From: Dictyostelium discoideum
Taxonomy: Eukaryota
NCBI GenBank assembly: GCA_000004695.1
Contig: CM000151.3
Location: forward strand, 288,001-352,000
Reading direction: 5' to 3'
DNA: 64,000 bases
Each line of letters opens with the position of its first letter. Position 1 is the first letter of the stretch. The translations under genes were made by a program, and so were the position numbers. The notes beneath the pieces are model-generated. The model was not told where the DNA came from. It ran no database searches and saw nothing but the letters and a program-made list of their open reading frames with translations. This document shows, piece after piece, positions 5,845-60,954 of the stretch.

Positions 5845-6213
5845 TTATGGTGCACCATGAGTAGCTGATGGAACAGTAGTGGTTGATGATGCAAAATGAG
5901 AAGTTAATGGACCAATAGAAGTTGATGGTGTTGCATGAGTAGTTGATGGACCAGTGGAAGTTGATGATGTAACATGAGTAGTTGGTGAATCAATGGAAGT
6001 TGATGATACAGTATGAGTATTTGATGGACCAGTGGAAGTTGATGATGTAACATGAGTAGTTGATCTACTACTACCACTACTACCACTACAACTACTGCTA
6101 CTATTAATACTAATACTAATACTATTACTAATACTAATACTAATACTAATACTAATACTAATACTAATACTAATTCTACTATCTTTACTATTCATTCCAA
6201 TTGGTGTTATCAT
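5845..6213 (-). repeat. Ser/Thr-rich mucin-like tandem-repeat ORF (TTHVTSSTSTGPS units, poly(IS) run); probably part of a repetitive element
   Basis: 122-aa ORF of imperfect 13-aa repeats. Related Thr/Ser/Pro-coding segments lie at 4440-4520, 31240-31500 (frameshifted) and 37640-37740, each beside the hairpin repeat. Confidence 0.35.
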
Positions 6214-6764
6214 CTGAAGTTGAATTAATTTTTATCACTTTTAAAACCGAATTCTCGACGTCTCCAAGAATATAAGAACAATAATTCAATATTGTTACAT
6301 TATGTTGTTGAAACATTTACACCTCTACCCCGTGCATATGTATCATTATTATTTGATATTGCAATTGAATGATTAACAATTAAAATGAAAACCAAAAAAA
6401 AAAAAAAAATTGGAAATTGGTAATGTTTCTACTGTAAAAAAAAAAATTAAAAAAAAAAATTAAAAAAAAAAAAAATAAAAAAAAAAATAAATAATTTTAG
6501 AAGCTATTATTATTTATTTATTTATTTATGTATTTATTTTTTTTTTATTTTTTTTATATATTTATCTTTTTAATTATTTTTTTGACAAATAATTGAGAAT
6601 GAAAACTAGAATTATTACCAATCTAATTTATTTCTTAATTTTTTTTTTTTTTGATTTTTCTTTTTTTTTTGATATTTTTCAAAAATTTTTTTTTAAAATA
6701 TATAAATGAGATATTTTAAAACATATCATTTATCAGACACTCTTTATAATTTAAACAAATAATA

Positions 6765-8618
6765 ATGTCAACAAATAAAAAAATAAAAACAGATAATAAT
6801 AATAAAATATTTCAAGATATTATTGATTTTGAAATTTTAAAATCTATAATCGATTATTTATTAACCAGCAAAAAAAATAAAAATAATAATAATATTAATA
6901 ATAATCAATATATAATTAAAAAATTTTATTTATATAGAGATGAAATATTAAATTATATATTAGTTTCAAAAAAGTGGTATAATTTTATATCATTTACAAT
7001 ATCAAATAATATTATTAATAATAAACTATTTGAACATTGGTTAAAAACTAATTTTAGTAATAATTCATTTATTGAAAATTATAATAATCAAAATCAATAT
7101 GATAAAAATAATTTAATTTATAATAACATAGAAGATAAACAATATAAAATTAGTTTTAATAAAGAATTTTCAATTATAAAAATCAAAGAATCAATAATCA
7201 ATGATTATTTTAAATTCAATTTATTTTTAGATCATTTTACGATTGACGATGATTTTAAAGAAATTAAAAATAAATTTGAAAAAAATCAATTACTTTATCA
7301 TAGAATTGTAGTTAGTGTTGATACTGATAATTATGGGTTTCCTAGTGATATTTTATTTACAATACATGAATATGTATCAAATGAAAATTCAGAAATCATA
7401 TCAAATTTATTTAAAATATTAGAATTAAATTTTGATTTTTGGTTGGATTACGGATATTGTCCACGTTCTGAAGAGGAGGATGATGAAGGTAATAAAAAAT
7501 GTAGAGAAATATATTTAAATAATTTATCAATTGCTGGTTATAATAGAGAAGTAGGTGAAGATGAAGAAACATTAAAGATATTCAAAATTTTCAAAAGTAA
7601 AAATATAATTTATGATGGATCCAATATTGATGAAAGTGATACTCCAACACATATCGATTATTCAACATTATTCGATCCAGATAATTCAGGTCAACAAGTT
7701 GAATCAATTAAAGTAAAAAATGAATATGGTAATGAAGCACGTCATTTAATCAAACTTAATCAATTTAAAAATTTACATTCAATTACAATACCAATTAATT
7801 CATTTCAAATATTATCAAACTTATCTGAAGAAATGGGATTTTGTAAGTTATATCGTACGATATATTCAGGTGATTCAGATAATATGAAATCAGAATTAAA
7901 TCAAATGATTAATTCATTCATTACAAATAAATCTTTAAAGTATTTAAATATATCATCTGTAAATTCAATATACACTCTTCCAATTAAAAATTATGATGGA
8001 GGTTATCATGAAATTTTTTTTAATAAAATAAATAAAACTATAGAATCATATTCAAATTCATTTAAACCATTATTTTCAGAATTAAATACATCGATTGAAA
8101 GAATTGAATTTGATTGTATGGGTTTATTAAATAATAAATCAATTAAATATTTATATTTATATGATAGTGATTTCATTGTTTATTCATCAAAACAAAAAGG
8201 TAATGTTAGTGGTATTCGATTACATAAAGAACATATTTCAATTAATCAATATTTATTTGATAATATATTTTCATCACCATTAACATCAATTAGACATTAT
8301 AAAATTAAATTCATAGAATTAAATCAAATCAAATTCTTATTTAATTTAATATTAAATAATATTTTTAAATTACAATTATATTCATTAATATTTGAATTCA
8401 ATGATAGCGAATTAATTGGTGAATTTGTTAAAGAATTTAAAAACTTAATAAATAATATTTCAACACAAGAACAACAAAAATCAAATAACATAAATTTAAA
8501 AGAAATTAAGATTAAAATTCAAGATGTTAATATTGATAAATATATTCAAGAATTAAATAATATTAACAATCCATATTTTACAACAATAATAAAGAAAAAA
8601 GCTAATAATGATGATTAA
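6765..8618 (+). CDS. Paralog-array family member 2 (617 aa, intact)
   Basis: Same architecture and motifs as 473..2452. The conserved leader ...CTCTTTATAATTTAAACAAATAATAATG is present upstream. Confidence 0.75.
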   Translation: MSTNKKIKTDNNNKIFQDIIDFEILKSIIDYLLTSKKNKNNNNINNNQYIIKKFYLYRDEILNYILVSKKWYNFISFTISNNIINNKLFEHWLKTNFSNNSFIENYNNQNQYDKNNLIYNNIEDKQYKISFNKEFSIIKIKESIINDYFKFNLFLDHFTIDDDFKEIKNKFEKNQLLYHRIVVSVDTDNYGFPSDILFTIHEYVSNENSEIISNLFKILELNFDFWLDYGYCPRSEEEDDEGNKKCREIYLNNLSIAGYNREVGEDEETLKIFKIFKSKNIIYDGSNIDESDTPTHIDYSTLFDPDNSGQQVESIKVKNEYGNEARHLIKLNQFKNLHSITIPINSFQILSNLSEEMGFCKLYRTIYSGDSDNMKSELNQMINSFITNKSLKYLNISSVNSIYTLPIKNYDGGYHEIFFNKINKTIESYSNSFKPLFSELNTSIERIEFDCMGLLNNKSIKYLYLYDSDFIVYSSKQKGNVSGIRLHKEHISINQYLFDNIFSSPLTSIRHYKIKFIELNQIKFLFNLILNNIFKLQLYSLIFEFNDSELIGEFVKEFKNLINNISTQEQQKSNNINLKEIKIKIQDVNIDKYIQELNNINNPYFTTIIKKKANNDD

Positions 8619-9223
8619 AAAAAATTATCTATATCTAAATTATTCATTTTTCATCCAACTATTTATTTTTTTTTTATTTTTTTTTTTTCAAGTTTTATTT
8701 GGATAAAATTAAATAAAATATTTTTTTTATTTATTTTTTTTTTTTTAGTTTCAAACTGTCACACCTGAATAAAAAAAATAAATGAAAAAACCCTCCCTCT
8801 TTATAATTTTTACAAATAATAATAATATCAACAAATTAAACAGACAATTATAATTTACAAAAAAAAAAAAAAAAAAAAAAAAAAATGGAAAAAAGAAAAC
8901 ATTTTTTTTTTTTAATTATTTCTAATTATTTTTAGAATTTAAACACTTTTATACACCTTATTATATTTTAAAATTTAAATTATTTAAAATGAGTGAATTA
9001 GGGGCAAAAAACGAAAAAAAAAAAAGAATTTCTTGCATAAAAAATATCTTTCTCAAATTTTTTTTTTTTTTTTTTATTTTATTTCATTTTTATTTTTATT
9101 TTATTTTTTATTTTATTTCATTTTATTTTTTTTTCCCAAAAAAAACCTTGTTTGAACCAAACAAATACTGTAACACACAAAAAAAAAAAATTGTAAACAT
9201 CTTTAATGGGTGCGACCATAAAT

Positions 9224-9662: not shown

Positions 9663-11516
9663 ATGTCAACAAATAAAAAAATAAAAACAGATAATAATAA
9701 AAAAATATTTCAAGATATTATTGATTTTGAAATTTTAAGATCAATAATTAATTATTTATTAATCAGCAAAAAAAATAAAAATAATAATAATAATACTAGT
9801 AATCAATATAAAATTAATAAATTTTATTTAAATAGAGATGAAATATTAAATTATATATTAGTTTCAAAAAAGTGGTATAATTTTATATCATTAACAATAT
9901 CAAATAGTATTATTAATAATAAATTATTTGAACATTGGTTAAAAATTAATTATAATAATAAATCATTTATTGAAAATTTTAATAATCAAAATCAATATGA
10001 TAAAAATAATTTAATTTCTAAAAACAAAAAATATAAACAAAATAAAATTAGTTTTAATAAAGAGTTTTCAATTATAAAAATCAAAGAATCAATAATCAAT
10101 GATTATTTTAAATTCAATTTTTTTTTAGATTATATTACAATTGATGATTTTAAAGAAATTAAAAATAAATTTGAAAATAATCAATTACTTTATAATAGAA
10201 TTGTAGTTAATGGTAGTTATGAAGGGGAAGTTTTATTTGGAATACATGAATATTTATCAAATGAAAATTCAGGAGTTATTTTAAATTTATTTAAAATATT
10301 AGAATTAAATCATGCTTTTAATTTATATTATAAACCAAAATCTGAAGAGAAGGATGAGGAGGATGGTCATGATGATAAAGGTAATAAGAAATGTACTGAA
10401 ATATATTTAAATAGTTTATCAGTTTTTGGTTTTGATGAAGGTGAGGGTGAAGTTCAAACATTAAAGATATTCAAAGTTTTCAAAGGTAAAAATTTAGTTT
10501 ATGATGGATCTGAAGAAGATCCTGATTTTCAAACACATATCAATTACTCTGCATTATTTGATCCAGATAGCTCAGGTCAACAAGTTGAATCGATTCAAGT
10601 ACAAAATAAATATGATAATGAAGAGTCAGTCGAAGCACGTCATTTAATCAAAGTTAATCAATTTAAAAATTTACATTCAATTATAATACCAATTAATTCA
10701 TTTCAAATATTATCAAACTTATCTAAAGAAATGGGATTTATTAGTTCCCATGGTTATGAAGAATATTCAGGAAATTCAGAAAATATGAAATCAGAATTAA
10801 ATCAAATGATCAATTCAATCGTTACAAGTAAATCTTTAAAGAATTTAAAAATAACATCTGTAAATTCAATATATTATCCAATTGATTACAAAGCTTTTTA
10901 TGATGGTGATCTTGAAACCCTTACTAATAAAGTAAATGAAACTATAGAATCATTTTCAAATTCATTTAAACCATTATTTTCAGAATTAAATACATCAATT
11001 GAAAGAATTGAATTTGATTGTATGGGTTTATTAAATATCAATACATTTTCAAATTTATTAAATAATAAATCAATTAAATATTTATATTTATATAATAGTG
11101 ATTTCATTGTTTTTTCACCTAAAAAAAGAGGTGGTCCATTTCATAGAGAACCTATTTCAATTAATCAATATTTATTTGATAATATATTTTCATCACCATT
11201 AACATCAATTAGACATTATAAAATTAAATTCATAAAATCAAATGAATTAAAATTCATATTTAATTTAATATTAAATAATATTTTTAAATTACAATTATAT
11301 TCATTAATATTTGAATTCAATGAAAACGAATTAATTGGTGAATTTTTTAAAGAATATAAAAATTTAAAAAATAATATTTCAACACAACAACAAAAATCAA
11401 ATAACATAAATTTAAAAGAAATTAAAATTAAAATTAAAGATGATGAATATATTCAAGAATTAAATAATATTAATATTCCATATTTCACCACAACATTAAT
11501 AAAGAAAATAACCTAA
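9663..11516 (+). CDS. Paralog-array family member 3 (617 aa, intact)
   Basis: Paralog with the same N-terminal F-box-like motif, ALFDPDSSGQQVESIQV core and IPYFTTTLIKKIT end. Conserved leader upstream. Confidence 0.75.
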   Translation: MSTNKKIKTDNNKKIFQDIIDFEILRSIINYLLISKKNKNNNNNTSNQYKINKFYLNRDEILNYILVSKKWYNFISLTISNSIINNKLFEHWLKINYNNKSFIENFNNQNQYDKNNLISKNKKYKQNKISFNKEFSIIKIKESIINDYFKFNFFLDYITIDDFKEIKNKFENNQLLYNRIVVNGSYEGEVLFGIHEYLSNENSGVILNLFKILELNHAFNLYYKPKSEEKDEEDGHDDKGNKKCTEIYLNSLSVFGFDEGEGEVQTLKIFKVFKGKNLVYDGSEEDPDFQTHINYSALFDPDSSGQQVESIQVQNKYDNEESVEARHLIKVNQFKNLHSIIIPINSFQILSNLSKEMGFISSHGYEEYSGNSENMKSELNQMINSIVTSKSLKNLKITSVNSIYYPIDYKAFYDGDLETLTNKVNETIESFSNSFKPLFSELNTSIERIEFDCMGLLNINTFSNLLNNKSIKYLYLYNSDFIVFSPKKRGGPFHREPISINQYLFDNIFSSPLTSIRHYKIKFIKSNELKFIFNLILNNIFKLQLYSLIFEFNENELIGEFFKEYKNLKNNISTQQQKSNNINLKEIKIKIKDDEYIQELNNINIPYFTTTLIKKIT

Positions 11517-11936: not shown

Positions 11937-12050
11937 CTATTTCTTTATTACTGTTGTGAAATATGGAATATTAATATTATTTATTTCTTGAATATATTCA
12001 TTATCATTAGTTTCAATTTTAATTTCTTTTAAAGTAATGTTATTTGATTT

Positions 12051-12126
<76 letters not shown>

Positions 12127-13916
12127 ATTGAAATATTATTTATTAAATTTTTAAATTCTTTAACAAAATCACAAACTAATTCGTTTTTATTGAATTCAAA
12201 TATTAATGAATATAATTGTAATTTAAAAATATTATTTAATATTAAATTAAATATGAATTTTAATTGATTTAATTCATTCAATTTAATTTTATAATGTCTA
12301 ATTGATGTTAATGGTGATGAAAATATATTATCAAATAAATATTGATTAATTGAAATAGGTTCTTGATGTAATTCATTACCGCTATAACTTGGTTTTGAAG
12401 AGTAAACAATGAAATCACTACCATATAAATATAAATATTTAATTGATTTATTATTTAATAAATTTGAAAATGTATTGATATTTAATAAACCACAACAATC
12501 AAATTCAATTCTTTCAATTGATGTATTTAATTCTGAAAATAATGGTTTAAATGAATTTGAAAATGATTCTATAGTTTCGTTTATTTTATTAGCAAAAATT
12601 TCATGATCAGCTCCCTTACAATCACGATAATATAAACCTTCATAATCAATTGGAGAATATTTTGAACTTACTGATGAGATATTTAAATTCTTTAAAGATT
12701 TACTTGTAATAAATGAATTGATCATTTGATTTAATTCTGTATTAATATTTTCAGAGTTACCCGATTCTGATTTACTATTATAAAATCTAATAAATCCCAT
12801 ATCCTCAGATAAGTTTGATAATATTTGAAAAGAGCTAATTGGTATTGTAATTGAATGTAAATTTTCAAATTGATTAACTTTGGCTAAATGGAGAGGTTCA
12901 ACAAATTCATCATTATCAGGTTCAATTTGTACTTTAATTGATTCAACTTGTTGACCTGAATTATCTGGATCAAATAATGCTGAATAATTGACATGTGTAG
13001 GCATATCACTACAAGTATCAGATCCATCATAAAATATATTTCTACCTTTGAAAATTTTGAATATCTTTACTGTTTCTTCATCATTACCTACTTCTCCATC
13101 AAAACCTGCAATTGATAAATTATTTAAATATAATTCAGTACATTTCTTACCACCTTTATCAGTATCATGATCACCTTCCTCCTCTTCAGAGTTTGGGCTA
13201 TAACCATTATCCAAACAAAAATCAATATTTAATTCTAATATTTTAAATAATTTTGATATGACTTCTGAATTTTCATTTGATACATATTCATGTATTCTAA
13301 ATAAAGTTGTTTTATTATTATTACTATCATAATCAGCATCAACATTAACTACAATTCTATTATAAAGTAATTGATTATTTTCAAATTTATTTTTAATTTC
13401 TTTAAAATCATCAATTGTAATCTTATATAAAAATAAATTGATTTTAAAATAATCATTGATTATTGATTCTTTGATTTTTATAATTGAAAACTCTTTATTA
13501 AAACTAATTTTATTTTGTTGATAATTATAATCTTCATCTTTAAAAATTAAATTATTTTTATCATATTGATTTTGATTATTATAATTTTCAATAAATGATT
13601 TATTTTTATTATTATAATTAATTTTTAACCAATGTTCAAATAATTTATTATCAATAATATTATTTGATATTGTTAATGATATAAAATTATACCACTTTTT
13701 TGAAACTAATATATAATTTAATATTTCATTTCTATAAAAATAAAATTTATTAATTTTATATATATTAATAGTATTATTATTTAAATTATTATTTTTATTT
13801 TTATTTTTTTTGCTAGTTAATAAATAGTTGATTATAGATTTTAAAATTTCAAAATCAATAATATCTTGAAATATTTTATTGTTATTATTTGTTTTTATTT
13901 TTTTACTTGTTGACAT
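11937..13916 (-). CDS. Paralog-array family member 4 (659 aa, intact), the only inverted copy; carries a (CAA)n-encoded polyQ tract of about 26 Q
   Basis: Intact ORF on the minus strand with the family motifs. A (TTG)n/(CAA)n microsatellite at 12050-12125 encodes QQQ...Q just before the C-terminal SNNITLKEIKI motif. Confidence 0.75.
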
Positions 13917-15583: not shown

Positions 15584-16540
15584 TTACTTACTATCATTAT
15601 AATCAGTAGCAGTATAGTTTATTGGGTCATCTAGCATTGATTTTAATCTATTATTATCTAATTTTCCTTCAAAATTTTCAATTTCTTGAATTGTTGTCGG
15701 AACTGATTCTAAAGATACTTTTAATAATATTATTGAAGTTGAAACTTGTTCTTTTTCTTTTTCTTTTTCTGATTCAGTTAATATCTTTAATTTTATTATT
15801 AATTTACAAGTGGTAATTAATCTTTTTAATGTTGATCTTTCATTAACCTGATATATAGTTTTGAGGTTTTTAATTATTAGATCAATTGTTAATTTACTAT
15901 TATTACAACTACTACTATTATTATTATTATTATTATCATTACCAATGTTATTTAAATAACATAATAATCCTTTAAAAATATTATCATTTTTTGGAATTTC
16001 ATCTAACTCGATTGATTTCTCACCAAAATCAGTGTTATTTAATGATGTTTCTAATGATGTTGATGATGGTGAGTTTGATTTTTTTAATTCTAAATTCTTT
16101 GATTGTATTATTGCAGTTGATACATAAATTGGTGAAGAGTAATAATACCTTTGAATTTTGAAAAAGTTTCTATTAAATTTGAAATCATTTTTAATTATTT
16201 CAAATAATTTCTTTAAATAAATTAAAATTAAATCTTTACGCCAACTAGATTGATCAGACTCTTTACGCCAACAAGTTTCACCAAATTCTAAATATCTACA
16301 ATTTCTATAAGCTTTTTCTTTTAAAATACTAATTTGATTTGAATCTATTAGTTTAGTTATTGACGATACTGAATCGTAACTAAATGAATATTGGTTATAC
16401 ATAAATGAGAATATCTTTTTATAAATTGCTTTATTTCTAAACAATTTCCAAAATAATATTTCAATTGGTTCTATATTATCTGTAATTGTTAATTTTATTG
16501 AATGAATTAGTATTTTCTTTTCGTTCATGTTCTTCTTCAT
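15584..16540 (-). CDS. ORF1-family protein (318 aa), intact short copy; transposon-associated, function unknown
   Basis: Intact ORF MKKNMNEKKILIHSIKLTITDNIEPIEILFWKLFRNKAIYKKIFSFM.... An identical N-terminal 150 aa occurs in the longer degenerate copy at 55222..57782. Family fragments at 58300-58400 and 63450-64000. Bounded downstream by a truncated palindromic-MITE terminus (15470-15580). Confidence 0.6.
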   Translation of the reverse strand: MKKNMNEKKILIHSIKLTITDNIEPIEILFWKLFRNKAIYKKIFSFMYNQYSFSYDSVSSITKLIDSNQISILKEKAYRNCRYLEFGETCWRKESDQSSWRKDLILIYLKKLFEIIKNDFKFNRNFFKIQRYYYSSPIYVSTAIIQSKNLELKKSNSPSSTSLETSLNNTDFGEKSIELDEIPKNDNIFKGLLCYLNNIGNDNNNNNNSSSCNNSKLTIDLIIKNLKTIYQVNERSTLKRLITTCKLIIKLKILTESEKEKEKEQVSTSIILLKVSLESVPTTIQEIENFEGKLDNNRLKSMLDDPINYTATDYNDSK

Positions 16541-23523: not shown

Positions 23524-23570
23524 AAACTTGTTTTCAAACATACTCTTTAATATTAACAAATAATGTCAAC

Positions 23571-23625
23571 AAATAAATTAAAAAACAGATAATAATAATA
23601 CAATATTTTAAAATTTAATTTTTTT
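23571..23625 (+). pseudogene. N-terminal stub of a family paralog truncated just left of the transposon TIR
   Basis: AACAAATAATGTCAACAAATAAATTAAAAAACAGATAATAATAATACAATATTTT matches leader + MSTNK.K.DNNN.IF, then is lost. The matching C-terminal stub (LNNIFKLQLYSLKFE) lies at 29095-29150 on the other side of the transposon. Confidence 0.45.
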
Positions 23626-23895
23626 TTTTTTTTTTTTATATAAATAAATAATTTACCTTTTGATTTGGAAATATAATTTATTTTATTTTGTTTGTTGTAG
23701 GGAATTTTCCATAAAATTTCACTACAGTAGCGTAGTGAATTTTATTATTTAATTTCACTACAGTAGCGTAGTGAAAAAAAAAAATCACTGACCTTAAATT
23801 TTTTTTTTTTTCAAAAAACAAATAAAGTTTATTAAATTGAAATTTTATTTTTTGTTTTAATTATTATTTTATTTATTTTTATTATAATTATTGTT

Positions 23896-23935
<40 letters not shown>

Positions 23936-24076
23936 CAATTTTTTTTTTTTAAATTTTTTTCAATTTTTATTTGTTTATTAAATTGTAATTTTATTTTTTG
24001 TTTTAATTATTATTTTATTTATTATTATTGTTAATTTTTTTTTTTTTTCAATTTTTTTTTTTTTAATTTATTTTTA

Positions 24077-24385
24077 TTAATTTATTTTTATTAACTCCCT
24101 GAGTTGTTCAATTGCTTGATTTACCATATCACTGTAAACACTGCACACAATTGAATTTTTTCTAGCTTTGTTACCTCTGGTGCATTTGATGTTTTTGCAT
24201 TTTCCTTTGTATACAAAAAAGTCCAAATATAATTCGTTTTCTATTACAGTTTTTACACAATGTTGGTGAAATTGTTTTGATTTTAATTCTAATGCTTCTA
24301 ACATCATATTTGGATTTTTAACGATTAAAGCATCACCACTATTTACATATAGTACTTTGGCTGCTTTTTCGAGGAATTTAGTCAA
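24077..24385 (-). CDS. Hypothetical ORF (102 aa) inside the Tdd-4-like element
   Basis: Open frame LEKAAKVLYVNSGDALIVKNPNMMLEALELKSKQFHQHCVKTVIENELYLDFFVYKGKCKNIKCTRGNKARK.... A possible short upstream exon at 24386-24480. No recognisable domain. Confidence 0.3.
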   Translation of the reverse strand: MTKFLEKAAKVLYVNSGDALIVKNPNMMLEALELKSKQFHQHCVKTVIENELYLDFFVYKGKCKNIKCTRGNKARKNSIVCSVYSDMVNQAIEQLRELIKIN

Positions 24386-24842
24386 ATTTTCCTCTGAATC
24401 TAACTATTCTTCATTGCCATATTCAATGGCTAAATTTCTTAAGAGTTTTATCGAATCTATTAATTCTTCGATCATTCTTTTTTTTTGAAATTTTTTTTTA
24501 TTTTGTTTTTTCAATTTTTTTTTTTTATTTTGTTTTTTCAATTTTTTTTAAGTTTTATTTTTTTTTATTTTTTTTTATTTTTTTTAACAAATGTAATTTT
24601 TTTTTATTTTTTTCAATTTTTTTTTTTTTTTAATTTTTAATTTTTTTTTTTTTTTTTAATTTTTTGTGTTGATTTGTGTTTTTTTTGTTTTTTTGATTTG
24701 GCCACTTGTTTTTATTTTCTAATTTCCCCATACCCCCTTCTATTAATTGCAACCAAATCAAGTTCTAATTTTTGTGTCCTTGTTAACTTTGTTTTTGCAA
24801 CTTTTTTTGAAGGTATCACATTAACGATTTTTCCTATTGATG

Positions 24843-25042
24843 GTGATTTGGAAGGTGATTTAAATGGTGATTTAAAAGGTGAATTGGAAGGTGATTTAAA
24901 TGGTGAATTGGAAGGTGAAATGGATGGTGATTTGGAAGGTGATTTAAATGGTGATTTGGAAGGTGATTTTAATGGTGATTTAAATGGTGAATTGGAAGGT
25001 GAAATGGATGGTGATTTGAGAGGTGATTTGGATGGTTTAGAA
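24843..25042. repeat. 15-bp tandem repeat (GGTGATTTRRAWGGT, about 13 units); possible subterminal transposase-binding repeats
   Basis: Direct tandem units in the DNA. Translates in the + frame to GDLEGDLNGDLKGELEG..., but more likely non-coding. Its reverse complement carries the AAATCACC motif that is also tandemly repeated inside the R elements. Confidence 0.5.
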
Positions 25043-26121
25043 TGTGATTTTAAAGGAGGTTTATTAACAATTGGTAGGACGGGAGGACGGCCTCTGAACA
25101 GTTGTTACTATACCACTATACCATTACCAGATTGTGGTATAGTATACGATGGTATTATTTGCACTTGAGGTAACTATTTCTTTTAATCTTTTAAATTCAT
25201 ATCCTTTCTCAAACAATTCATTAAATTTGGCGCTGTTAGATTATTATTTAAAAATGGGAGTATTTCTTCTTGTTCCATTTCATTATTGAGTTTGTGTTGA
25301 AATGGATTATCGTTAATGATAGGTGGAATATTTGATGGATTGTTAATAGCATCTTCCAAAACCCTAAATGGATCATTTTGTGTTACCAATTGATGCAAGT
25401 TGAAATTGGATAAATCCTTACCAAGATTTTTAATAAACTGAACCAAAAATTCAATAACTTTCCCATCATTATTTAAATAAAGACCAGAAGTAAAAGAATC
25501 AATATCTTTTTGTATGTTTGGCGATGTTCTAAAAATATCAACTGTTGATTGTTTATAAAGAACCAACTTGTTACCTCCTACAAAACCAGAGTATAAACCT
25601 TTTTTTTGAAGGCTATTGATTCCATCTTCCAAAAATTCAAGTTTATAAAGTTGTTTAGTGTCTTCCTGTATTACCTTATGAATTTTACACAAAATCAATA
25701 TTTTCTATTAGAATTAAATATAAAATTTGTTAATTATTACTGTTTCATATATTATTAATCTTTATGTTTTAATTACTTACATTATTTTTTTTAATTTCTA
25801 GAAAGAGTACAGTATCACCAACTTTCAATCCCTTTGGTGGTTTTGAATTCCATTGATTTTGGTAACTTGTGAGATTTTCAAGAATAATAGCTGTTCTTTC
25901 TTCTTTTGAAACATCTGAAACACCAATTGATTGAGAGTCTTGTTCTGATTGAACATTAATAAACAAAGGAACAATACCAACAGCTTGAGATGGTGTCATT
26001 TTAATTGTTCTTGTTTTTGTATTATTGTAATCATACAAAGCTTGTTTTAATAGTTCAGAAAGAGACCTAGAAGTACCATCAAGAAAACTAAAATTTATTT
26101 ATAAATGATTAATTAATAAAC

Positions 26122-26873
26122 ATCACAGCAAAGAAAAAACCACCTTTAAATTCGCTTTAAATTAAATTTAAATTTGCTTTAAAGTCCTGAATTAAAGCAA
26201 TTTTAAAGGTAATTTTTAAGGTTACTTTAAAATCACCTTAAAAATTACCTTTAAAATTACCTTTAAAATTACCTTTTTAATGGCTTTAAAAGCGAGGTCC
26301 TGAGTTCGAATCCGTTATTTAACGGATAAATTTTTTAAAATTTTTTTTTTAATTTTTCAAAAATTACCCAAAAGGGATTCGATCCCCCGACCCTCTATCA
26401 AAGGGTAGTCTCATCAACCATTACACCATTTGATTGCTTTGATGAAAAATTTAAAAATGATAGAATATTTTATCCCCATTTTTTTGTGCTAAAATTAGAT
26501 CTTTTTTATTAAAAATCTTAAATTTATGTTTAAAGGAAATTTAAATTCACTTTAAATCTACTTTTAATCTACTTTAAATCCTATTTAAAATTAATTTAAA
26601 ATAAATTTTAAAGGTATTTTTAAATATCTTAAAAATTATCTTAAAAATTACCTTAAAAATCACCTTTAAAATCACCTTTAAAATCACCTTTAAAATTGCT
26701 TAAAAATTTATTTTAAAGCAAATTTTAAAGGCATTTTTAAATATCTTAAAAATTACCTTAAAAATTACCTTAAAAATGAATTTTTTAAACGCGGCTTTAA
26801 ATTCAATTTAAATCCAATTTAAATCAACTTTTCTTTAAATTTGCTTTAAAGGTGCATTTTTCTTTGCTGTGAT
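26122..26873. mobile_element. R element copy 1 (about 750 bp, MITE-like) inserted in the transposase gene
   Basis: 12-bp terminal inverted repeat ATCACAGCAAAG / CTTTGCTGTGAT. Internal tandem AAATCACCTTT and AAATTACCTTT repeats. Internal tRNA-like segment with A-box and B-box. Flanked on both sides by AT. A second copy at 27678..28458 is more than 98% identical in the same orientation. An R-like fragment also lies inside a MITE at 35100-35200. Confidence 0.6.
26374..26437 (-). ncRNA. tRNA-like module inside R element (A-box TGGTGTAATGG, anticodon-arm-like ACCCT/TTGATAG/AGGGT, B-box GGATCGAATCC); lacks an acceptor stem, so a tRNA-derived / SINE-like promoter module
   Basis: The minus strand reads GCAATCAAATGGTGTAATGGTTGATGAGACTACCCTTTGATAGAGGGTCGGGGGATCGAATCCC. 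The T-arm and anticodon arm fold, but the 3' acceptor strand does not pair with the 5' end. An identical module lies in R2 at 27959..28022. Confidence 0.4.
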
Positions 26874-27677
26874 ATCGATAATTTATATTGTTCACAATAT
26901 CATACTCTTGTTGTTTTAATTTTGAGATCCTCTCCTTGATAGTTCGATTCAATCTTTCTACCATACCTTGAGTTGTTGGTGTACGAGGAGCTCCATGTGC
27001 TGACTTGGAGCCTGGAAAAAGTTTTAGGAATTCTTTTTGGACTTTGTTTTTAAATTCACGTCCATTATCGCAGTGCCATACTTTCACAGGTTTGCCAAAG
27101 TACGTGAGAGCCAAAAAATTGTATATGGGAACTGTTCTCTTTGTTGTCAAACATCTAAAAAATAAATGATAATTAAAATAAAAAAAGAAAACTAATAAAT
27201 TAATAAATAAAAAATAAATACCTTCCAGTAGCAAATTTTGTAAAAGAATCTATGCATAGAATAATGTAAACAACATCGGTGTCGTACGGTTGTACAGAGT
27301 CATATTGGATAAGATCATCTAGTTTAGTTAGTATCTTTTCATTATCATCATCGTATGTAACTTTTTCTTTATGTTCACCTTTAATTGATGTTAAATCATA
27401 AACCAATCTTGAGTATTCCTCGGTATCTACAATTGGAGCAAAATCCTTTGTTATACCTATTAATTTATTTAAATTATTAAAAGAGTTTTAATATAAAAGT
27501 TACAAAACATCATATAAAAATGATTGATACCAAACCTTTTATTCTATTTCGTTGGCAAATGTCACACGTATCTACTGCATCAGATACAAAAGAATACAAT
27601 CCCATATTATAATATTTAGTCTTGTAGTTCCCATAGGTTGCATCTCTTCCTATATGACCTTTATGCATTTCTTCCCA

Positions 27678-28458
27678 GAGTGATACCATCACAGCGAAGA
27701 AAAAACCACCTTTAAATTCGCTTTAAATTAAATTTAAATTTGCTTTAAAGTCCTGAATTAAAGCAATTTTAAAGGTAATTTTAAAGGTAATTTTTAAGGT
27801 TACTTTAAAATCACCTTATTTAATATTTATTTATAGGCTTATCATTTAAGCTGAAGGGTTATTTTAATGGCTTTAAAAGCGAGGTCCTGAGTTCGAAGCC
27901 GTTATTTAACGGATAAATTTTTTAAAATTTTTTTTTAATTTTTCAAAAATTACCAAAAGGGATTCGATCCCCCGACCCTCTATCAAAGGGTAGTCTCATC
28001 AACCATTACACCATTTGATTGCTTTGATGAAAAATTTAAAAATGATAGAATATTTTATCCCCATTTTTTTGTTCTAAAATTAGATCTTTTTTATTAAAAA
28101 CCTTAAATTTATGTTTAAAGGAAATTTAAATTCACTTTAAATCTACTTTAAATCTACTTTAAATCCTATTTAAAATTAATTTAAAATAAATTTTAAAGGT
28201 ATTTTTAAATATCTTAAAAATTATCTTAAAAATTACCTTAAAAATCACCTTTAAAATCACCTTTAAAATCACCTTTAAAATTGCTTAAAAATTTATTTTA
28301 AAGCAAATTTTAAAGGCATTTTTAAATATCTTAAAAATTACCTTAAAAATTACCTTAAAAATGAATTTTTTAAACGCGGCTTTAAATTCAATTTAAATCC
28401 AATTTAAATCAACTTTTCTTTAAATTTGCTTTAAAGGTGCATTTTTCTTTGCTGTGAT
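27678..28458. mobile_element. R element copy 2 (MITE-like) inserted in an exon of the transposase gene
   Basis: Same TIRs and internal structure as 26122..26873. Removing it plus one flanking AT dinucleotide joins ...EVCLEVINDYR to MVSLWEEMHKGHIGRD... in frame. Confidence 0.6.
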
Positions 28459-28743
28459 TCTATAATCATTAATTACTTCTAAACACACTTCTTTTGATAT
28501 ATTTCTATCTCCGCCACAATTCATGACTTTTTTTTCAATTCTAAATAATTTTTCTTTTCTGTTTCTGTTTTTTATTGGTCAGAATTTAAAAAATGATTGT
28601 GTTATTGTAAGGAAAAATATTTACTCATCATGTAAAAATTTATAATTTTTATGTTTAGTATTTTCAAAATTATTATCTTCAATAAATTTTAAATAATTTA
28701 TAATTTCATTTATTTTATCTTGTTTCATTTTGGGAAAATGAAA

Positions 28744-28778
<35 letters not shown>

Positions 28779-29313
28779 TGTTGGGGAAAAAAAAAAAAAG
28801 TTTTGGCGCAAAAAAAAAAAAAAAAATTAAATAAAAAAAAAAAAAAATTAAATAAAAAAAAAAAAAAATAAAAAAACTTATATAGAACTAATAATCAAAT
28901 AAAAGATAATAATTTAATAAACTTTATTTGTTTTTTGAAAAAAAAAAAATTTAGGGTCAGTGATTTTTTTTTTTCACTACGCTACTGTAGTGAAATTAAA
29001 TAATAAAATTCACTACGCTACTGTAGTGAAATTTTATTGAAAATTCCCTACAACATTGTTCGATGAAAATGAGAAGATTTTTTTTATCCCAGTTGTAGTG
29101 AAAAAATTAAATAATATTTTTAAATTACAATTATATTCATTAAAATTTGAAAAAAAATAATAAAAAAAAAAAAAAATTTTTGGCTTTTAAGATTTATGGA
29201 GAATTATCCATCAAAAAAAAAAAAAAAAAAAAAAGGTTAAAAAAAAAAAAAAGGTTAAAAAAAAAAAAAAAATTAAACTTTTTTTTAAAAACTTATTCTT
29301 AAAACAAATAAAA

Positions 29314-38746: not shown

Positions 38747-40345
38747 TAATAATCACAATACTAGTAATCAATATAAAATTAATAAATTTTATTTAAATAG
38801 AAATGAAATATTAAATTATATATTAGTTCAAAAAAGTGGTATAATTTTATATCATTAACAATATCAAATAATATTATTGATAATAAATTATTTGAACATT
38901 GGTTAAACATTAATAATATTAGTAATAAATCATTTATTGAAAATTATAATAATCGAAATCAATATGATAAAAATAATTTAATTTCTAAAAACAAAGAAGA
39001 TAATCATAATAAAATTAGTTTTAATAAAGAGTTTTCAATTATAAAAATCAAAGAATCAATAATCAATGATTATTTTAAATTCAATTTATTTTTATATAAG
39101 ATTACAATTGATAATTTTAAAGATATTAAAAATAAATTTGAAAATAATCAATTACTTTATAATAGAATTGTTGTTAATGTTGATACTGGTTATGATGAAG
39201 AGAATCTAGATGAAATTTTATTTAGGATACATGTGTATCAAATGAAAATTCAGAAATCATATCAAATTGATTTAAAATATTAGAAAAAAATTATGATTTT
39301 ATGGTAATCGATGGTTATAATACAAACTCTGAAGAGGAGGAGGAGGATAAAAGTAATAAGAAATGTACTGAAATATATTTTAATAATTTATCAATTGTAG
39401 GTTTTGATACAAATATAGGTGAGGATAGAGAAGCAGTAAAGATATTCAAAATATTCAAAAGTATAAATATATTTTATGATGGGACCTTTCTTAATGCTAT
39501 TCCAACACATGTCAATTATTCAGCATTATTTGATCCAGATAATTCAGGTCAACAAGTTAAATCAATTATAGTACAAATTGGACGTGAAGAATATTCTGAT
39601 TTTGTTGAACCACGTCATTTAATCAAAGTTAATCAATTTGAAAATTTACATTCAATTACATTTTCAATCAATTCATTTCAAATATTATCCAATCTATCGA
39701 AAGAAATGGGATATTTTAGTTTCAAATGTATAAAATCTGATTTTGGTAATTCAGATAATATCAAATCAGAATTAAATCAAATGGTAAATTCAATCATTAC
39801 AAGTAAATATTTAAAGAATTTAAAAATAACATCCATTAATACAGAAAAACATCCAATTGATTATGATACTTATTATGATTATGGTGAACCTCAAGCTTTT
39901 GTTAATAAAATAAATGAAACTGCAGAATCATTTTCAAATTCATTTAAACCATTATTTTCAGAATTAAATACATCAATCGAAAGAATTGAATTTGATTGTA
40001 TGGATCAATACATTTCAAAATTATTAAATAATAAATCAATTAAATATTTATATGATAGTGATTTCATTGTTTACTCATTAAAACCAAGTGGTGGTGCTGG
40101 TGGTGCTGATGGTAGTCAAGTACATAAAGAACCTATTTCAATTAATCTATATCTATTTGATAACATATTTCCATCACCATTTACATCAATTAGACATTAA
40201 AGAATTAAATTCAAAGAATCAAAACAATTAAAATTCATATTTAATTTAATATTAAATAATATTTTTAAATTACCATTATATTCATTAATATTTGAAGAAT
40301 TAATTAATATTAATAGTCTATATTTCAAAATAGTAATAAAGAATA
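38565..40345 (+). pseudogene. Family member with multiple frameshifts (ORF pieces 38565..38858 and 39301..40200 plus a shifted C-terminus); contains a very long (AAT)n polyN tract
   Basis: The N-terminal ORF breaks at ILVQKSGIILYH (versus ILVSKKWYNFIS), resumes in another frame, and after the stop at 40200 continues as RIKFKESKQLKFIFNLILNNIFKL. Confidence 0.6.
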
Positions 40346-53751: not shown

Positions 53752-54261
53752 TCTATAATTTATTTATTTATTTTAATTTAAAGTTAAAATTTAAATAAAT
53801 ATTTTTTTTTTATTTTGAAAGATGAAAAAAAAAGATTAAATACTAAAAAAAAAAGAATGAAAAGAAAAAAAAAAAAGAAAAAAAAGAAAAAAATTAAAAA
53901 TATTGTTTTATTACTATGATCCAATTATTCAAAATATCATAATAATCTCTCTCATATCTCCATTAAAAAAAAACAGAACTAAAATTATTAAAAAATTACA
54001 ATAAATCATCTTCACCCCATTGTTAACCAAAACAGTTTTTTTTTTTAATATTGGCTGAAAAAAAAATTTTAGAAAATTCATTATTTTATTAGATATTTTA
54101 TGACACGTAATTTCTCACTTTTAATAAAGAGATTGTAATTTAATAAAATTTTTAACAAATTAATATTAATTAATAATATATCATATTTTAATATAAAATT
54201 ATCATTAAATAATAAAAAAAGAATTAGCCCATAATAAAAATACAAATAAATATTAATTACA

Positions 54262-54400
54262 CCCCCAACGAGCAAAATGACTACGTAACCCCTGTAAGCG
54301 GCTAATAGGCCTGTAAGACGAATAGCCGGATTTGTGGGCTACACTGGTTGTAAGGATTACAAGGGCTACTAACCGCTTATAGGGGTTATGTAGTTATTTG
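54262..54400. repeat. Second copy (inverse orientation) of the GC-rich palindromic element
   Basis: Reverse complement of 17425-17560 with 5 substitutions, three of them in the stem arms (CTTATAGG, TTATGTAGTT). Confidence 0.55.
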
Positions 54401-54850
54401 AATTCGTTTAAAAATAATATTCAACGAAATTTCAAACAAAGAAATAAACAAATATATTTATATATAAATTTGCTTATTTCTTTGTTTGAAATTTCATTGA
54501 AAAAAAATAATAAAATTTCATTAAAAAAAATAAATAAACGGAATTCCATAAAATAAATAAAAAATAAATAAACAAATAAACAAATAAATAAATAAATAAA
54601 TAAATTTAATTTTCAATAACATTTAATTCCTTTATTTTTAAAATTTTTTAATCTGAACTAAAATTTTTTTTTTTTTTTTTTTTTCTAAAATTAATATTAG
54701 TATATCATAATAAAGATTGTAAAACTTTTGTTTATTTTAAGTGAATATTTATGAATTACAATTTTTTTTTAAATGTTACAAATGTCGCTGTATTTTTTTA
54801 AGTGTTACAAAATGTTTTTTATTGGTTTTTTTTTTTTTTTTTTTAAATTT

Positions 54851-54883
<33 letters not shown>

Positions 54884-55221
54884 CTAAATAAAATCCGTTA
54901 CACCATAAAAATGTTTTTTATTTGTTTTTTTTTTTATTTTTTTTTTTATATTTTTTTTTATATTTATTTATTTTTTTTTTTTTTTTATTTTTTAATTTCC
55001 CCCACCACCACAACAATGAAAAATAATTTATATATTTAAATTATTTTAATCATCTTTAATTAATAAGATGATAAAGATAATGATAATAATTGTGAATTAG
55101 AGAAAAAGAATTTAAAATCAATTAAAGAAATTGCAAAATCATATTGTATAGAAATAAATCACTTAAATAAACAAGAAATAATTGAAAGGATTAAAATTGT
55201 AAAAAAAAAGAAAAAGAGAAT

Positions 55222-57782
55222 ATGAAGAAGAACATGAACGAAAAGAAAATACTAATTCATTCAATAAAATTAACAATTACAGATAATATAGAACCAATTG
55301 AAATATTATTTTGGAAATTGTTTAGAAATAAAGCAATTTATAAAAAGATATTCTCATTTATGTATAACCAATATTCATTTAGTTACGATTCAGTATCGTC
55401 AATAACTAAACTAATAGATTCAAATCAAATTAGTATTTTAAGAGAAAAAGCTTATAGAAATTGTAGATATTTAGAATTTGGTGAAACTTGTTGGCGTAAA
55501 GAGTCTGATCAATCTAGTTGGCGTAAAGATTTAATTTTAATTTATTTAAAGAAATTATTTGAAATAATTAAAAATGATTTCAAATTTTATAGAAACTTTT
55601 TCAAAATTCAAAGGTATTATTACTCTTCACCAATTTATGTATCAACTGCAATAATACAATCAAAGAATTTAGAAATTTAGAAATTATTTATAAATGAATT
55701 CAATTACCAACCAACAAAAACAGATCTTTTAAATTCAATCGAGACAGGTTCAAATAAAATCATCAAATATATATTAGAATTAAAAAAATCAAACTCACCA
55801 TCATCAACATCATTTGAAACATCATTAAATAACACTGATTTTGGTGAGAAATCAATCGGGTTAGATGAAATTCCAAAAAATGATAATATTTTTAAAGGAT
55901 TATTATGTTAAATAACATTGGTAATGTAATAATAATAATAATAGTAGTAGTTGTAATAATAGTAAATTAACAATAATTAAAAACCTCAAAACTAAATATC
56001 AGATTAATGAAAGATCAACATTAAAAAGATGAATTACCACTTGTAAATTAATAATAAAATTAAAGATATTATCTGAATCAGAAAAAGAAAAAGAAAAAGA
56101 ACAAGTTTCAACTTCAATAATATTATTAAAAGTATCTTTAGAATCAGTTCCAACAACAATTCAAGAATTGAAAATTTTGAAGTAAAATTAGATAATAATA
56201 GATTAAAATCAATGCTAGATGACCCAATAAACTACACTGCTACTGATTATAATGATAGTGAAATTAAAATTTTTATAAAGAAATCATTAATATTTATATT
56301 ATTCAACAACAAATATTACAAATTCTTTATATTTACATCAATATTATAATAATGAAATTAGTAACGTTAATTTAAATTTCATTAAAGAAATTCATTTTAT
56401 TGAAATTGCATTTAGATTTGGAAATTGTGAAATTTTATCAAAGGTTACCGATGTAAATAATATATATGGACTATTCAATTCTAAAACACTATTATTACCA
56501 AATAATAATAAAGATATTAGTAGTTTAGGAAATTATAATATTCTATTCTCACATTGTTGTAATGATAATAAAGAGAAAAAGATGAAATTCATGGATCAAC
56601 TATCAATTGAAAGTGTATACCAAACAACATTATCCTACTATATGTTCATTATGCTCATAGTTCATAATGATATTGAACTATTGAGATATTATTGCAGGAA
56701 TAGGGGAATGAATTTTAATTTTTATATTGATTTTCAAAGTTTAGATGTTCAACCAACTTATTATATAGAATCAACAGAGATGTTAGATTATTTATTTAAT
56801 AACCATATTAGATACTTTTTAGATCCTTTTTATACTGGGAATTATAGTACACATTTTAAAAGTTTAATACTATTAAAACATTTTGAATCATTATTGTTTA
56901 AAACAGGACAGCTTCAATTAGAGGAAAATGATAATCTTGTTTGCTTTATAAAAAAAGAAGATAAAAGATATAATAATATTCAAAATAAAAATTCAAGAAA
57001 TATCAAGATTTTGTTGATTAATCATTTTTCATCAAATCCATCAATATACTATAATGAAAGATTAGATCATCAATTATTTTTAGTACTCACCAGCAGTAAT
57101 GACGATTCATCATCATCTTCATCATCACCACCAATCAACTTTGAAGTATTAAAAGATTTAGCAATCGATGCACTCAAATTTGATATTAATCTATTTCATT
57201 CAAGAACATTAACAAAAAATCATTATACCAAGAATTATTTGAAATTTATAGAATGGATGTTTTTAAACTATAATGATGAAATGAAAAAAGGTGGTCATTT
57301 TTATCATAATGAAGTCTACTATTTCCATTTATTAATGTCAATTGATCAATTTGATTATAATAATAATAGTAACGATTTAAAAGAAAAAGGTGGTACTACT
57401 ATTAATATTGAAAAAAATGCTTAAATTAATTATTCTAGTTAAAGAATTAACACCTTATTTATTTGAAGCAAATAATTTTAAATTTTTAAATTGGTTTTTA
57501 ACAAACATTAAAGATTATCATCATCAATTAAAATTATCATCATCATCACTCAAAACAAAACCAGATAAGGAATCAACTACGGTAGGAGATATTGTTTGTT
57601 CAATTTTATCTTTTATTTCAAGCAATTCAAGATTAAAAATACTTGAATATATTCAAAACTTTAGTTTCATTTTAAAGAATAAACCAAATAATGGAGTTTT
57701 AAATCCTGGTCAATTTTATTTTTATCACTTTCTTGTTCAATTAATATTTCAGAATTTCTTTTACAATTCATTCCAATCATGA
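55222..57782 (+). pseudogene. Long degenerate copy of the ORF1-family gene (ORF pieces 55222..55680, 56582..57424, 57390..57782)
   Basis: The first 152 aa are identical to 15584..16540. After that the frame breaks repeatedly, but the coding-like composition continues for about 2.5 kb. It ends at a truncated palindromic-MITE terminus (58040-58100). Confidence 0.5.
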
Positions 57783-58998: not shown

Positions 58999-59021
58999 CA
59001 ATAAATTTTTAAAATTGAAAG

Positions 59022-59095
59022 TATTCAGAGCGGGAATCGAACCCACGACCTAATCCGTGTTAAGGATTCGTGATAACCGACTACACCATCCGAAC
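59022..59095 (-). tRNA. tRNA-Val(AAC): tRNA-Val (anticodon AAC)
   Basis: The minus strand reads GTTCGGA TG GTGT AGTCGGTTA TCAC G AATCC TTAACAC GGATT AGGTC GTGGG TTCGATT CCCGC TCTGAAT A. This is a cloverleaf with a canonical T-loop and a 5-bp anticodon stem. The 7-bp acceptor stem has two G-T wobble pairs (1-72 and 5-68), so it may be slightly degenerate. Confidence 0.6.
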
Positions 59096-60019
59096 TAATT
59101 GATAAAATTTTTGAAAAACCAACAGTACATGCAATTAATTTTATTCCAATTCAAAAAAAAAAAAAAAAAAAAAAAAGCAATTAATTTTAAACAGATCGAA
59201 AAAAAACAAACAACAACAACAATCTTTTTTTTTGATTATTTCATTTTTCATATAAAAAAGACTTAAAAAACAAATAAATAAATAAATAAACTATTTTAAA
59301 AAGCCATCTTTTTACTTTATTGGAATTAATTATTTGTTCCGTTTTGAGAATTTTGCGTAGCAAAATTTTCAAAAAAAAAGCAAAAAATAATCAGATCGAA
59401 AAAAAACAAACAACAACAAAAATCTCTTTTTTTGATTATTTCATTTTTCATATAAAAAAGTAAACTAACCCCTCTTTTAGAGACCCTGTAAAAAAAAAAA
59501 AATTACAAATAAAATGAGATCTAGCATCTCAAGAAGAAGCAACTAATAATTGCGTTATCCAATTCAAAAAAAAAAATAAAAAAAAATTTAATTTTATTTA
59601 ATGGTATTTAATTTTTATATATTTATTATACAATTTTTAATTTATTTTAATACAATTTGAAATAAAATTTTATTTTGTTTTTATATTGAAATTTTTGTAA
59701 TTTTAATTTTAGATTTTTATAATTATAAGAATTGGTGTTTGTAAATTTGTAATTTGTAAATTGTGAGTTTTTAGAAATACAGAGTTTATGACTTTTGATA
59801 TTTATATTAAATCAATAATTTTAAATTTTTAAATTGGTTTTTAACAATCATTCAAAAGTATCACAATTACCCGTTCCTTGCAGCACCAATGATTGTATTA
59901 AAATTTTGGTTATCACACTTTTGGATCGTTTTATATTAAATTTTAAATTACATATATTTGAATACATTCATCAAAATTTCGATTTTATTTTAAAGAAAAA
60001 CTCAGAAGGTGGAATATTA

Positions 60020-60500
60020 ACTGTCCCATGCCAAAATTAATATGGCTGCTGAAATTAATATGGTAATTTTGGCATGGGACTTATGTCTGCTAGAATTACC
60101 ATATTAATTTCAGCAGCCATATTAATTTTGGCATGGGCCGACCAACTATTTTAGGCTGAAATTAATATGGCTGCCGAAATTAATATGGTAATTTTGGGCA
60201 TAGAAAAATAAAAAAAAAAACTCAAAGTCATTTAATTAATAATAATCATCTCAAATATAAAAGAATTAAAAATAATAATAAAAAAAAACTCATGGGATTA
60301 ATTATAGTAACAATACTGACGACAAGAATAATTATAAAATAAAAAAAAAAAAAAAAATCTTTTTTTATCTTTTTATTTTTATTTCTTATTTATTTTCATG
60401 TGTTCAAAAAAAGTGGTGGTTTAAAACAATTTATTTAATTTTAAACTGTATGATTGTTTAAACAATTTCGAAATAAGTTTCTTTAAAGAAATTCTGTATT
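60020..60500 (-). repeat. Palindromic-MITE terminus (reverse orientation), followed by (ATT)n at 60601-60750
   Basis: Reverse complement of the 3955-4420 terminal block, including the triple CCATATTAATTTCAGC palindromes and CTCAAAGTCATTTAATTAATAAT...CTCATGGGATTAATTATAGTAACAATACTGACGACAAGAATAATTAT. Confidence 0.55.
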
Positions 60501-60596
60501 TCTTTTTTTTATTTTATTTTATTTCATTTCATTCTATTTTTTTTTTTTTATTTTTTTTATTTTTTTATTTTTTTATTTTTTTTTTGTATATTTAAG

Positions 60597-60752
<156 letters not shown>

Positions 60753-60954
60753 TAATTAACCGAAGGGATATCTTTTACTTTTTTTTTATATATAATTGTT
60801 CGAAACTTTAAAAAAATAAAATAAAAAAAAAAAATTAAAAAAAAAAATTTAAAAAAAAAAAATATAAAAAAAAAAATATAAAAAAAAAAAATTAAAAAGT
60901 ATTTTTTTTTTTATTTTTTTATTTTTTTAAAGTTTTCGTTCCAAAAAATGGTCT

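Follow-up and report, generated by a model that had tools for sequence, protein, structure and literature searches.

A defective copy of the transposon Tdd-4 with two nested insertions in a tandem gene array of Dictyostelium discoideum

Which mobile element occupies positions 23693-29055 of a 64,000-nucleotide stretch of Dictyostelium discoideum DNA (contig CM000151.3 of assembly GCA_000004695.1, positions 288,001 to 352,000 of the forward strand; hereafter the window), and can it still make its own transposase? The original prediction for this locus was a Tdd-4-type DNA transposon with terminal inverted repeats (TIRs), a target duplication of 5 bp and a transposase that resembles integrases and has introns in its gene. 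Our analyses bear this out and make it more precise: the interval is almost certainly a copy of Tdd-4 itself, a cut-and-paste DNA transposon of D. discoideum that belongs to the Ginger2/TDD group. Specifically, across the zinc finger and the DDE core its spliced protein is identical at 255 of 256 positions to the TDD4 sequence (XP_629668) given in Additional file 1 of PMC2836005. Tdd-4 and DDT had been treated as one type in the prediction; this was mistaken, since the literature keeps the two families, Tdd and DDT, apart.

Ends, target duplication and family identity

The whole copy (23693..29055, with the transposase gene on the minus strand) measures 5,363 bp, and its ends, TGTTG...CAACA, satisfy both the TG...CA and the TGTNR pattern. 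The TIR that is 3' relative to the gene (23693..23838, plus strand, 146 nt) begins TGTTGTAGGG, while the TIR at the 5' end of the element (28911..29055, minus strand, 145 nt) ends ...CCCTACAACA. When the first arm is aligned with the reverse complement of the second (29055-28911), we find only 3 mismatches and 1 one-base indel over 146 columns, so these repeats are indeed near-perfect, as predicted, and longer than the roughly 100 bp that had been proposed. Imperfect extensions reach ~23935 on the left and ~28813 on the right, i.e. a looser inverted repeat of ~243 nt at 80% identity.

Two further features of the arms are confined to the element. The terminal 17-mer TGTTGTAGGGAATTTTC occurs in the 64-kb window only at the two element ends (0 expected from shuffles), and a 23-nt subterminal motif, TTTCACTACAGTAGCGTAGTGAA, has four exact matches in the same window (0 expected), two per arm and 36 nt apart. 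These lie at 23717-23739 and 23753-23775 in the left arm (together 23717..23775, plus strand) and at 28973-28995 and 29009-29031 in the right arm (together 28973..29031, minus strand). Each copy of the motif includes a small palindrome (CACTAC/GTAGTG), and the paired motifs are candidate binding sites for the transposase.

The element is directly abutted on both sides by the 5-mer TTGTT (23688..23692 and 29056..29060), which had been suggested as a possible target-site duplication. The match is perfect, and the chance of such a 5-mer match is 0.0067 given the composition of this 20.5% G+C sequence. The copy also contains two nested insertions of a short repeat, R1 and R2 (collectively R). Subtracting both insertions with one copy each of their 2-bp duplications (5,363 - 750 - 769) leaves 3,844 bp, which agrees with the anticipated ~3.8 kb and compares with the 3,839 bp published for TDD-4, an element described with a 5-bp duplication, TGTNR termini and an inverted repeat of 260 (Bao, Kapitonov and Jurka 2010; PMC2836005).

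The same ends delimit other copies in D. discoideum, with different 5-bp duplications. L005 (2681-6501; 3,821 bp) is flanked by CATAT, L007 (2677-6507; 3,831 bp) by ATGAC, and L002 (5722-11790; 6,069 bp, including three other R insertions) by TCATC. Overall, copies elsewhere that are free of R span 3,815-3,831 bp. Absence of this TIR from the rest of the genome had been named beforehand as grounds for abandoning the assignment; we find instead that it recurs, at three of the other loci with a different target duplication.

The protein evidence points the same way. Of the 558 residues of the window protein, 555 are shared with P0023, an intact 715-aa protein encoded by other D. discoideum copies. 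In a large protein collection, close homologues (E <= 1e-50) come only from D. discoideum or D. cf. discoideum, and four weak homologues (E 1e-8 to 1e-4) come from ENA sequences. The closest protein clusters comprise ~27 gene models distributed over all AX4 chromosomes and a newer assembly; the contig position of one AX4 protein, P0003, was sought and not found. In one D. discoideum assembly, four loci encode an identical 715-aa P0023, which, judged from sequence, looks like the pattern of an active or recently active family.

The insertion site in a paralogue array

Given that the ends and the target duplication are intact, where did the element land, and did it damage what it landed in? To its left lies a degenerate N-terminal stub of a paralogue together with its upstream region (23563..23677, plus strand), which corresponds to gene nt 1-114 of the best-matching paralogues. 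To its right lies a fragment of the same family (LNNIFKLQLYSL; 29103..29151, plus strand), which corresponds to ~nt 1730-1780, i.e. ~250 nt before the stop, and is 94-96% identical to intact members. About 1.6 kb of the paralogue is missing between these two pieces, and the insertion site falls at this gap. The homology on the left ends 15 nt before the element, that on the right begins ~45 nt after it, and the intervening ~60 nt show no homology to the paralogues. These data support the view that Tdd-4 landed in the remnant of one member of a tandem array. We found no unoccupied allele of the locus; the only other matching assembly carries the same Tdd-4, R1 and R2.

It had been proposed that the transposon not only landed in this array member but also helped destroy it. 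The stubs are real and the landing stands, while the destruction is unproven in view of the intact duplication. A loss of ~1.6 kb caused by the insertion of Tdd-4, or by a transposition or excision gone wrong at this site, would account for the position of the element between both stubs and for a deletion junction that is also the insertion site. We nevertheless consider it unlikely: a perfect 5-bp duplication marks a simple integration, in which the target loses no DNA, the ~60 nt that separate the element from the stubs are unrelated to the paralogues, and unequal recombination within the tandem array explains the loss equally well. Because the 5-bp duplication is intact, we conclude that the loss was not made by the integration of Tdd-4; it either preceded the insertion or came about differently, for instance by unequal recombination within the array.

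The array itself extends over positions 473-48395 of the window and includes at least eight full-length paralogues (572-698 aa), one of them on the opposite strand (11937-13916), as well as a truncated member at 39301-40200 and the remnant around Tdd-4. The orthologous gene models have no Pfam family on record.

The transposase gene, its product and its present state

Within the element, five GT...AG introns on the minus strand (60, 79, 67, 68 with R1 removed, and 76 nt) yield a single frame of 558 codons, provided that one AT copy at the R2 site is also deleted. Exon 1 (28625..28728) starts with the ATG at 28728 and is followed by a 60-nt GT-AG intron (28565-28624), the acceptor of which was chosen to match the intact protein P0023; an alternative acceptor gave a 550-aa model. 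Exon 2 is interrupted by R2, with its 5' part at 28457..28564 and its 3' part at 27536..27687, the latter encoding the HHCC zinc-binding motif (HKGH...CDIC; Integrase_H2C2 at 32.8 bits, with a cut-off of 25.5). Exon 3 (27222..27456) provides the first catalytic Asp (VYDLTS) and an insertion of ~33 residues before the next strand, exon 4 (26906..27154) the second Asp (HCDNG) and the Glu (GMVERLN), and exon 5 (25781..26087) the end of the catalytic core and the beginning of a beta-rich domain (KVGDTVLF...). Exon 6 (25183..25704) extends to a premature stop (...KDMNLKD*) at codon 558 of 715, whereas intact copies run 157 codons further, through a series of SPXX repeats, to ...RRGYGEIRK. The rest of this last large exon (24715..25182) is out of frame or interrupted in the window; it holds 16 tandem SPXX repeats at ~24840-25060 and ends ...RRGYGEIRK*. 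All of these exons, and the frame described next, are on the minus strand.

Downstream of the transposase, an open frame of 102 codons (24077..24385; ...KFLEKAAKVLYVNSGDAL...) is conserved in all Tdd-4 copies examined and contains several Cys and His residues (...HQHC...CKNIKC...). It has no Pfam match, and in some AX4 gene models (P0021) it is joined to the transposase. This frame is either the final exon of a longer isoform or else encodes a second product. Wells is said to have described Tdd-4 in 1999 with a 145-bp repeat, 15 SPXX repeats and six introns, the sixth of which reportedly has AT-AA borders and is alternatively spliced. Alternative splicing was reportedly proposed to give a full-length transposase and a shorter inhibitor that lacks the SPXX DNA-binding tail.

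Can this gene still be expressed as a complete protein? In assembly GCA_054883475.1 (L003/L004), this locus is 99.1% identical, with the same Tdd-4, R1, R2 and TTGTT. It lacks two patches found in the window. The first (25077..25186) creates the stops and consists of changes with a period of 8 nt, namely two tandem duplications and two deletions of 8 nt each, and a replacement of 6 nt whose source lies 8 nt away; the second is a scrambled stretch of ~45 nt in R2 (27816-27861). At both patches the window also differs from all other copies, and they may reflect strain-specific mutation, template switching or assembly error.

One could thus suppose that the window holds an intact, autonomous Tdd-4, with R1 and R2 spliced out as introns and the stops being sequencing errors. 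R1 lies within intron 4 and could be removed along with it, the stop-creating patch is missing at the same locus in the newer assembly, and both inverted repeats are intact. R2, however, makes this very improbable. It interrupts the coding sequence, with ...INDYR on one side and MVSLWEEMHKGH on the other, its borders are CACAGC and TGTGAT rather than GT...AG, and it is present in both assemblies, where the gene models are truncated: P0034 reads into R2 and stops, and P0026, the downstream model of the same locus, restarts at MVSLW with the first ~70 residues lost.

Because R2 splits exon 2 in both assemblies, no full transposase comes from the window copy, independently of the frameshifting patch. 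The locus was initially described as complete-looking, a term that suits its ends and not its coding sequence, in which exon 2 is split and premature stops occur: the copy is complete at its ends and unable to encode a full transposase. It is a defective copy of Tdd-4, not a variant family. Both ends are intact, and therefore it could still be mobilized in trans by transposase from intact copies. For annotation, this means that the gene models in the interval, for example P0026 and P0034 of the orthologous locus, are transposon fragments, partly read into R, and no host genes.

What the family encodes when intact is clearer from the protein. Among Pfam families, Integrase_H2C2 exceeds its cut-off on the window protein, while rve and rve_3 fall below their curated cut-offs and are consistent with the assignment; no other domain is recognized in the element. 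A search of the sequences of solved structures matches the integrase cores of RSV, PFV and HIV, aligned across DNG...F and MVER. We modelled the structure of P0001, a related full-length protein; the model is usable in its core (~110-280) and beta-rich domain (~350-410), and its best PDB matches are all full-length integrases (PFV, HIV, SIV, RSV, MVV and Ty3; 360-440 columns, E 1e-10 to 1e-7). In the intact 715-aa protein, the zinc motif is H79-x2-H82 ... C112-x2-C115, and the catalytic residues are D142, D229 and E266. For the first Asp, which is ambiguous by phmmer (the D174 region), we followed the published alignment that places it at VYD(142)LTS.

The prediction was correct with regard to the minus-strand gene, its GT..AG introns, the HHCC domain and the DDE core, and incorrect with regard to a GPY/F-like C-terminus. 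A motif scan found no G-P-[YF] and no [YF]-P-[YF]-[YF] in the entire 715-aa protein, i.e. neither GPY/F nor YPYY; its C-terminal part carries 16 tandem SPXX units instead, an array that is a candidate for the C-terminal DNA-binding region. This agrees with the Ginger2/TDD group, which lacks GPY/F and YPYY, unlike Ginger1 and Gypsy (PMC2836005).

The established chemistry of DDE enzymes of the retroviral-integrase type suggests how Tdd-4 would move. Directly seen are the TG...CA inverted ends, the 5-bp duplication at four independent loci, a three-domain protein of the integrase type with all catalytic residues in the family consensus, and many copies, some with intact and identical genes. The transposase would be a DDE enzyme built much like a retroviral integrase, with an HHCC zinc domain, an RNase-H-fold core, a beta-rich C-terminal domain and an SPXX tail. 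It would bind the ~145-nt inverted repeats, probably at the paired 23-nt motif, and cut the TG...CA ends so that the 3' OH at CA is exposed. The exposed ends would then be joined to target DNA with a 5-bp stagger, and repair of the resulting gaps would leave the 5-bp duplication, TTGTT at the window locus.

Several observations weigh against the assignment to Tdd-4. Of six complete copies examined, two have no matching 5-bp duplication (L006, 2686-6500, 3,815 bp; and L009, 4410-8230, 3,821 bp); both lie in transposon clusters, where the duplication was presumably lost through rearrangement. At the nucleotide level, the identification draws solely on other copies from D. discoideum and on lengths given in the literature. 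Overall confidence in the structure model is low (mean pLDDT 49), with only the core and the beta domain exceeding 65-85. Lastly, the frameshifting patch is missing at the same locus in GCA_054883475.1.

Some of the transposon clusters contain further pieces of Tdd-4. Extra solitary ends are present at 6500-8075 of L006 and at 8463 of L005, L009 and L005 lie on the same contig ~4.8 kb apart, and positions 382-1995 of L007 may be a deleted Tdd-4 copy of ~1.6 kb. DDT and Tdd elements have been reported to occupy the same regions (PMC2665215), and the clustered copies fit this joint accumulation.

Two other identities for the element are hardly credible. The first, a fragment of an LTR (long terminal repeat) retrotransposon of the Ty3/gypsy type (Skipper or DGLT-A) with a surviving integrase and incidental inverted repeats, is in line with the matches of the protein to integrase families and structures, Ty3 included, and with LTR retrotransposon genes near other Tdd-4 copies, yet it conflicts with ends that are inverted and not direct (145 nt, 3 mismatches), with spliceosomal introns in the gene, with the 3.8-kb units that the same ends delimit elsewhere between 5-bp duplications, with the 255/256 identity to the published TDD4, and with the lack of any reverse transcriptase, RNase H, protease or gag between the ends (open frames and Pfam). 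The original prediction had singled out an intact upstream reverse transcriptase and RNase H as decisive for an LTR element. The second identity, Tdd-5 or a new Tdd family, could draw on the same group (Ginger2/TDD), a length in the same range (3,783 bp), a 5-bp duplication, an integrase-like gene with the same domain order (AF298206; PMC2836005), and the presence of Tdd-5-like proteins (P0004 and P0005) in the same genomes; against it, identity of the window protein to P0004 and P0005, neither of which has a tandem SPXX array, is only 43-45%, the zinc-finger and first-Asp region of P0004 is, by eye, close to the printed TDD5, and identity to the printed TDD4 is 99.6%.

Comparison with known systems thus returns to Tdd-4, which the window copy resembles in its transposase, unit length, TG...CA ends, ~145-nt repeats (~243 nt with the extension), 5-bp duplication, GT-AG introns, HHCC and DDE domains and SPXX tail, and from which it differs in two nested R insertions (one exonic, one intronic) and a frame stopped at codon 558 of 715. 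Animal Ginger2 elements (e.g. Ginger2-1_NV and Ginger2-1_HM) share the H2C2 and DDE transposase, the TGTNR termini, the inverted repeats (45-180 nt) and the absence of GPY/F or YPYY. They have 4-bp duplications and prefer RTATAY targets (PMC2836005). By contrast, Tdd-4 duplications are 5 bp long, a difference (5 vs 4 bp) already stated in the literature, and TTGTT, TCATC, CATAT and ATGAC have no RTATAY consensus. Ty3/gypsy and retroviral integrases have the three-domain layout, the catalytic D, D and E, and the fold in common with the Tdd-4 protein, whereas the window element has no reverse transcriptase, RNase H, LTRs or GPY/F, possesses introns, and shows ~33 extra residues after the first Asp and a spacing of 37 between the second Asp and the Glu (HIV: 36).

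Nested R insertions and significance of the copy

What, then, has disabled this copy? R1 (26124..26871, plus strand, 748 nt) lies in intron 4 and is flanked by AT at 26122-26123 and 26872-26873, and R2 (27690..28456, plus strand, 767 nt) lies in exon 2 and is flanked by AT at 27688-27689 and 28457-28458. They are 94-95% identical to each other, and both start with CACAGC and end with GCTGTG. Both sites are empty in the Tdd-4 copies L001 and L002, where the flank alignments overlap by exactly 2 bp per site, which shows R1 and R2 to be true insertions, each with a 2-bp target duplication. L002 holds another four complete R copies (6108-6867, 8299-9056, 10108-10867 and 11978-12736), with duplications TA, TT, TT and GA, respectively. 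Accordingly, 2-bp duplications accompany all six complete R copies, with variable sequence (AT, AT, TA, TT, TT and GA) and a chance of 0.12 per copy.

In structure, R is a non-autonomous element of ~750-770 nt that has no long open frame and combines inverted repeats of ~27 nt with internal arrays of 12-nt repeats (TTAAAAATTACC / TTTAAAATCACC). Of the eight R copies seen, five are located within Tdd-4 (both window copies and three in the L002 Tdd-4 copy), in a sample biased by the fact that loci beyond the window were fetched because they contain Tdd-4. Peptides derived from R also occur in two gene models, P0002 from another Tdd-4 copy and P0004 from a Tdd-5.

Could R belong to a catalogued family? 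DDT-S and thug were sought in the literature, and no sequence-level description was found that would allow R to be named. The regions shared by DDT and Tdd elements (PMC2665215) fit R as a small DDT-type element, a candidate identity that is circumstantial. We regard it as quite unlikely, if worth stating, that R is an undescribed non-autonomous DNA transposon, or shows an undescribed behaviour of a catalogued one, that prefers Tdd targets and acts as a parasite inactivating another transposon family.

Three candidate links between R and other sequences were rejected. An autonomous R partner at window positions 55009 and 16753 proved to be 2-mismatch chance matches to R-like termini within a large inverted segmental duplication. 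A 382-aa rve gene adjoining an R copy in L002 is an LTR retrotransposon gene, with reverse transcriptase upstream on the same strand. Finally, there is no evidence that Tdd-4 and R transpose together as a composite, and the 645/646-aa models P0031 and P0036, from other loci, have no R at the R1 and R2 sites. Inverted segmental duplications in the window are 91-99% identical and pair 54000-56269 with 17828-15582, 60680-61578 with 19693-18787, and 60014-60617 with 4422-3836; one duplicated gene, starting MKKNMNEKKILIHSIKL, is found at 15584-16540 (minus strand, 318 aa) and at 55222-55680 (plus strand, truncated to 152 aa).

A tRNA-like stretch was seen in R by eye only, at 26290-26330 and 26375-26445 and at the equivalent positions in R2. 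It comprises a D-arm-like segment, an anticodon-like stem with GAT, and segments resembling a T-arm or B-box (GGATCGAATCC and GAGTTCGAATCC), with no closing acceptor stem. Neither ARAGORN nor Rfam (E<=1) calls a tRNA in R, and Rfam gives only weak matches to microRNA hairpins, far under gathering scores, which we take as chance in AT-rich palindromes. In a genome where tRNA genes are the targets of TRE retrotransposons, B-box-like sites in R could be of consequence. The sole tRNA gene that ARAGORN calls in the window is a tRNA-Val (AAC) at 59021-59095 on the minus strand.

Taken together, the locus records a history in which Tdd-4 integrated into the leftover of one tandem-array member, and R later struck this copy twice, in intron 4 (R1) and in exon 2 (R2), each time with a 2-bp duplication. 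The window sequence in addition carries frameshifting changes ahead of the SPXX repeats.

The element itself is already known, i.e. Tdd-4 in its known host, with no new family feature. Its significance beyond correct annotation is small, R being its one part of mild further interest. Known since 1999, Tdd-4 is the founding member of the Ginger2/TDD integrase-like DNA transposons, a group that attracts interest since the DNA transposon from which LTR retrotransposons gained their integrase may have been similar to it. To this family the window copy adds a clean worked example of the Tdd-4 ends, 5-bp duplication and intron structure, an example of a DNA transposon disabled by the nested insertions of another, and a dated event in the decay of one tandem-array gene.

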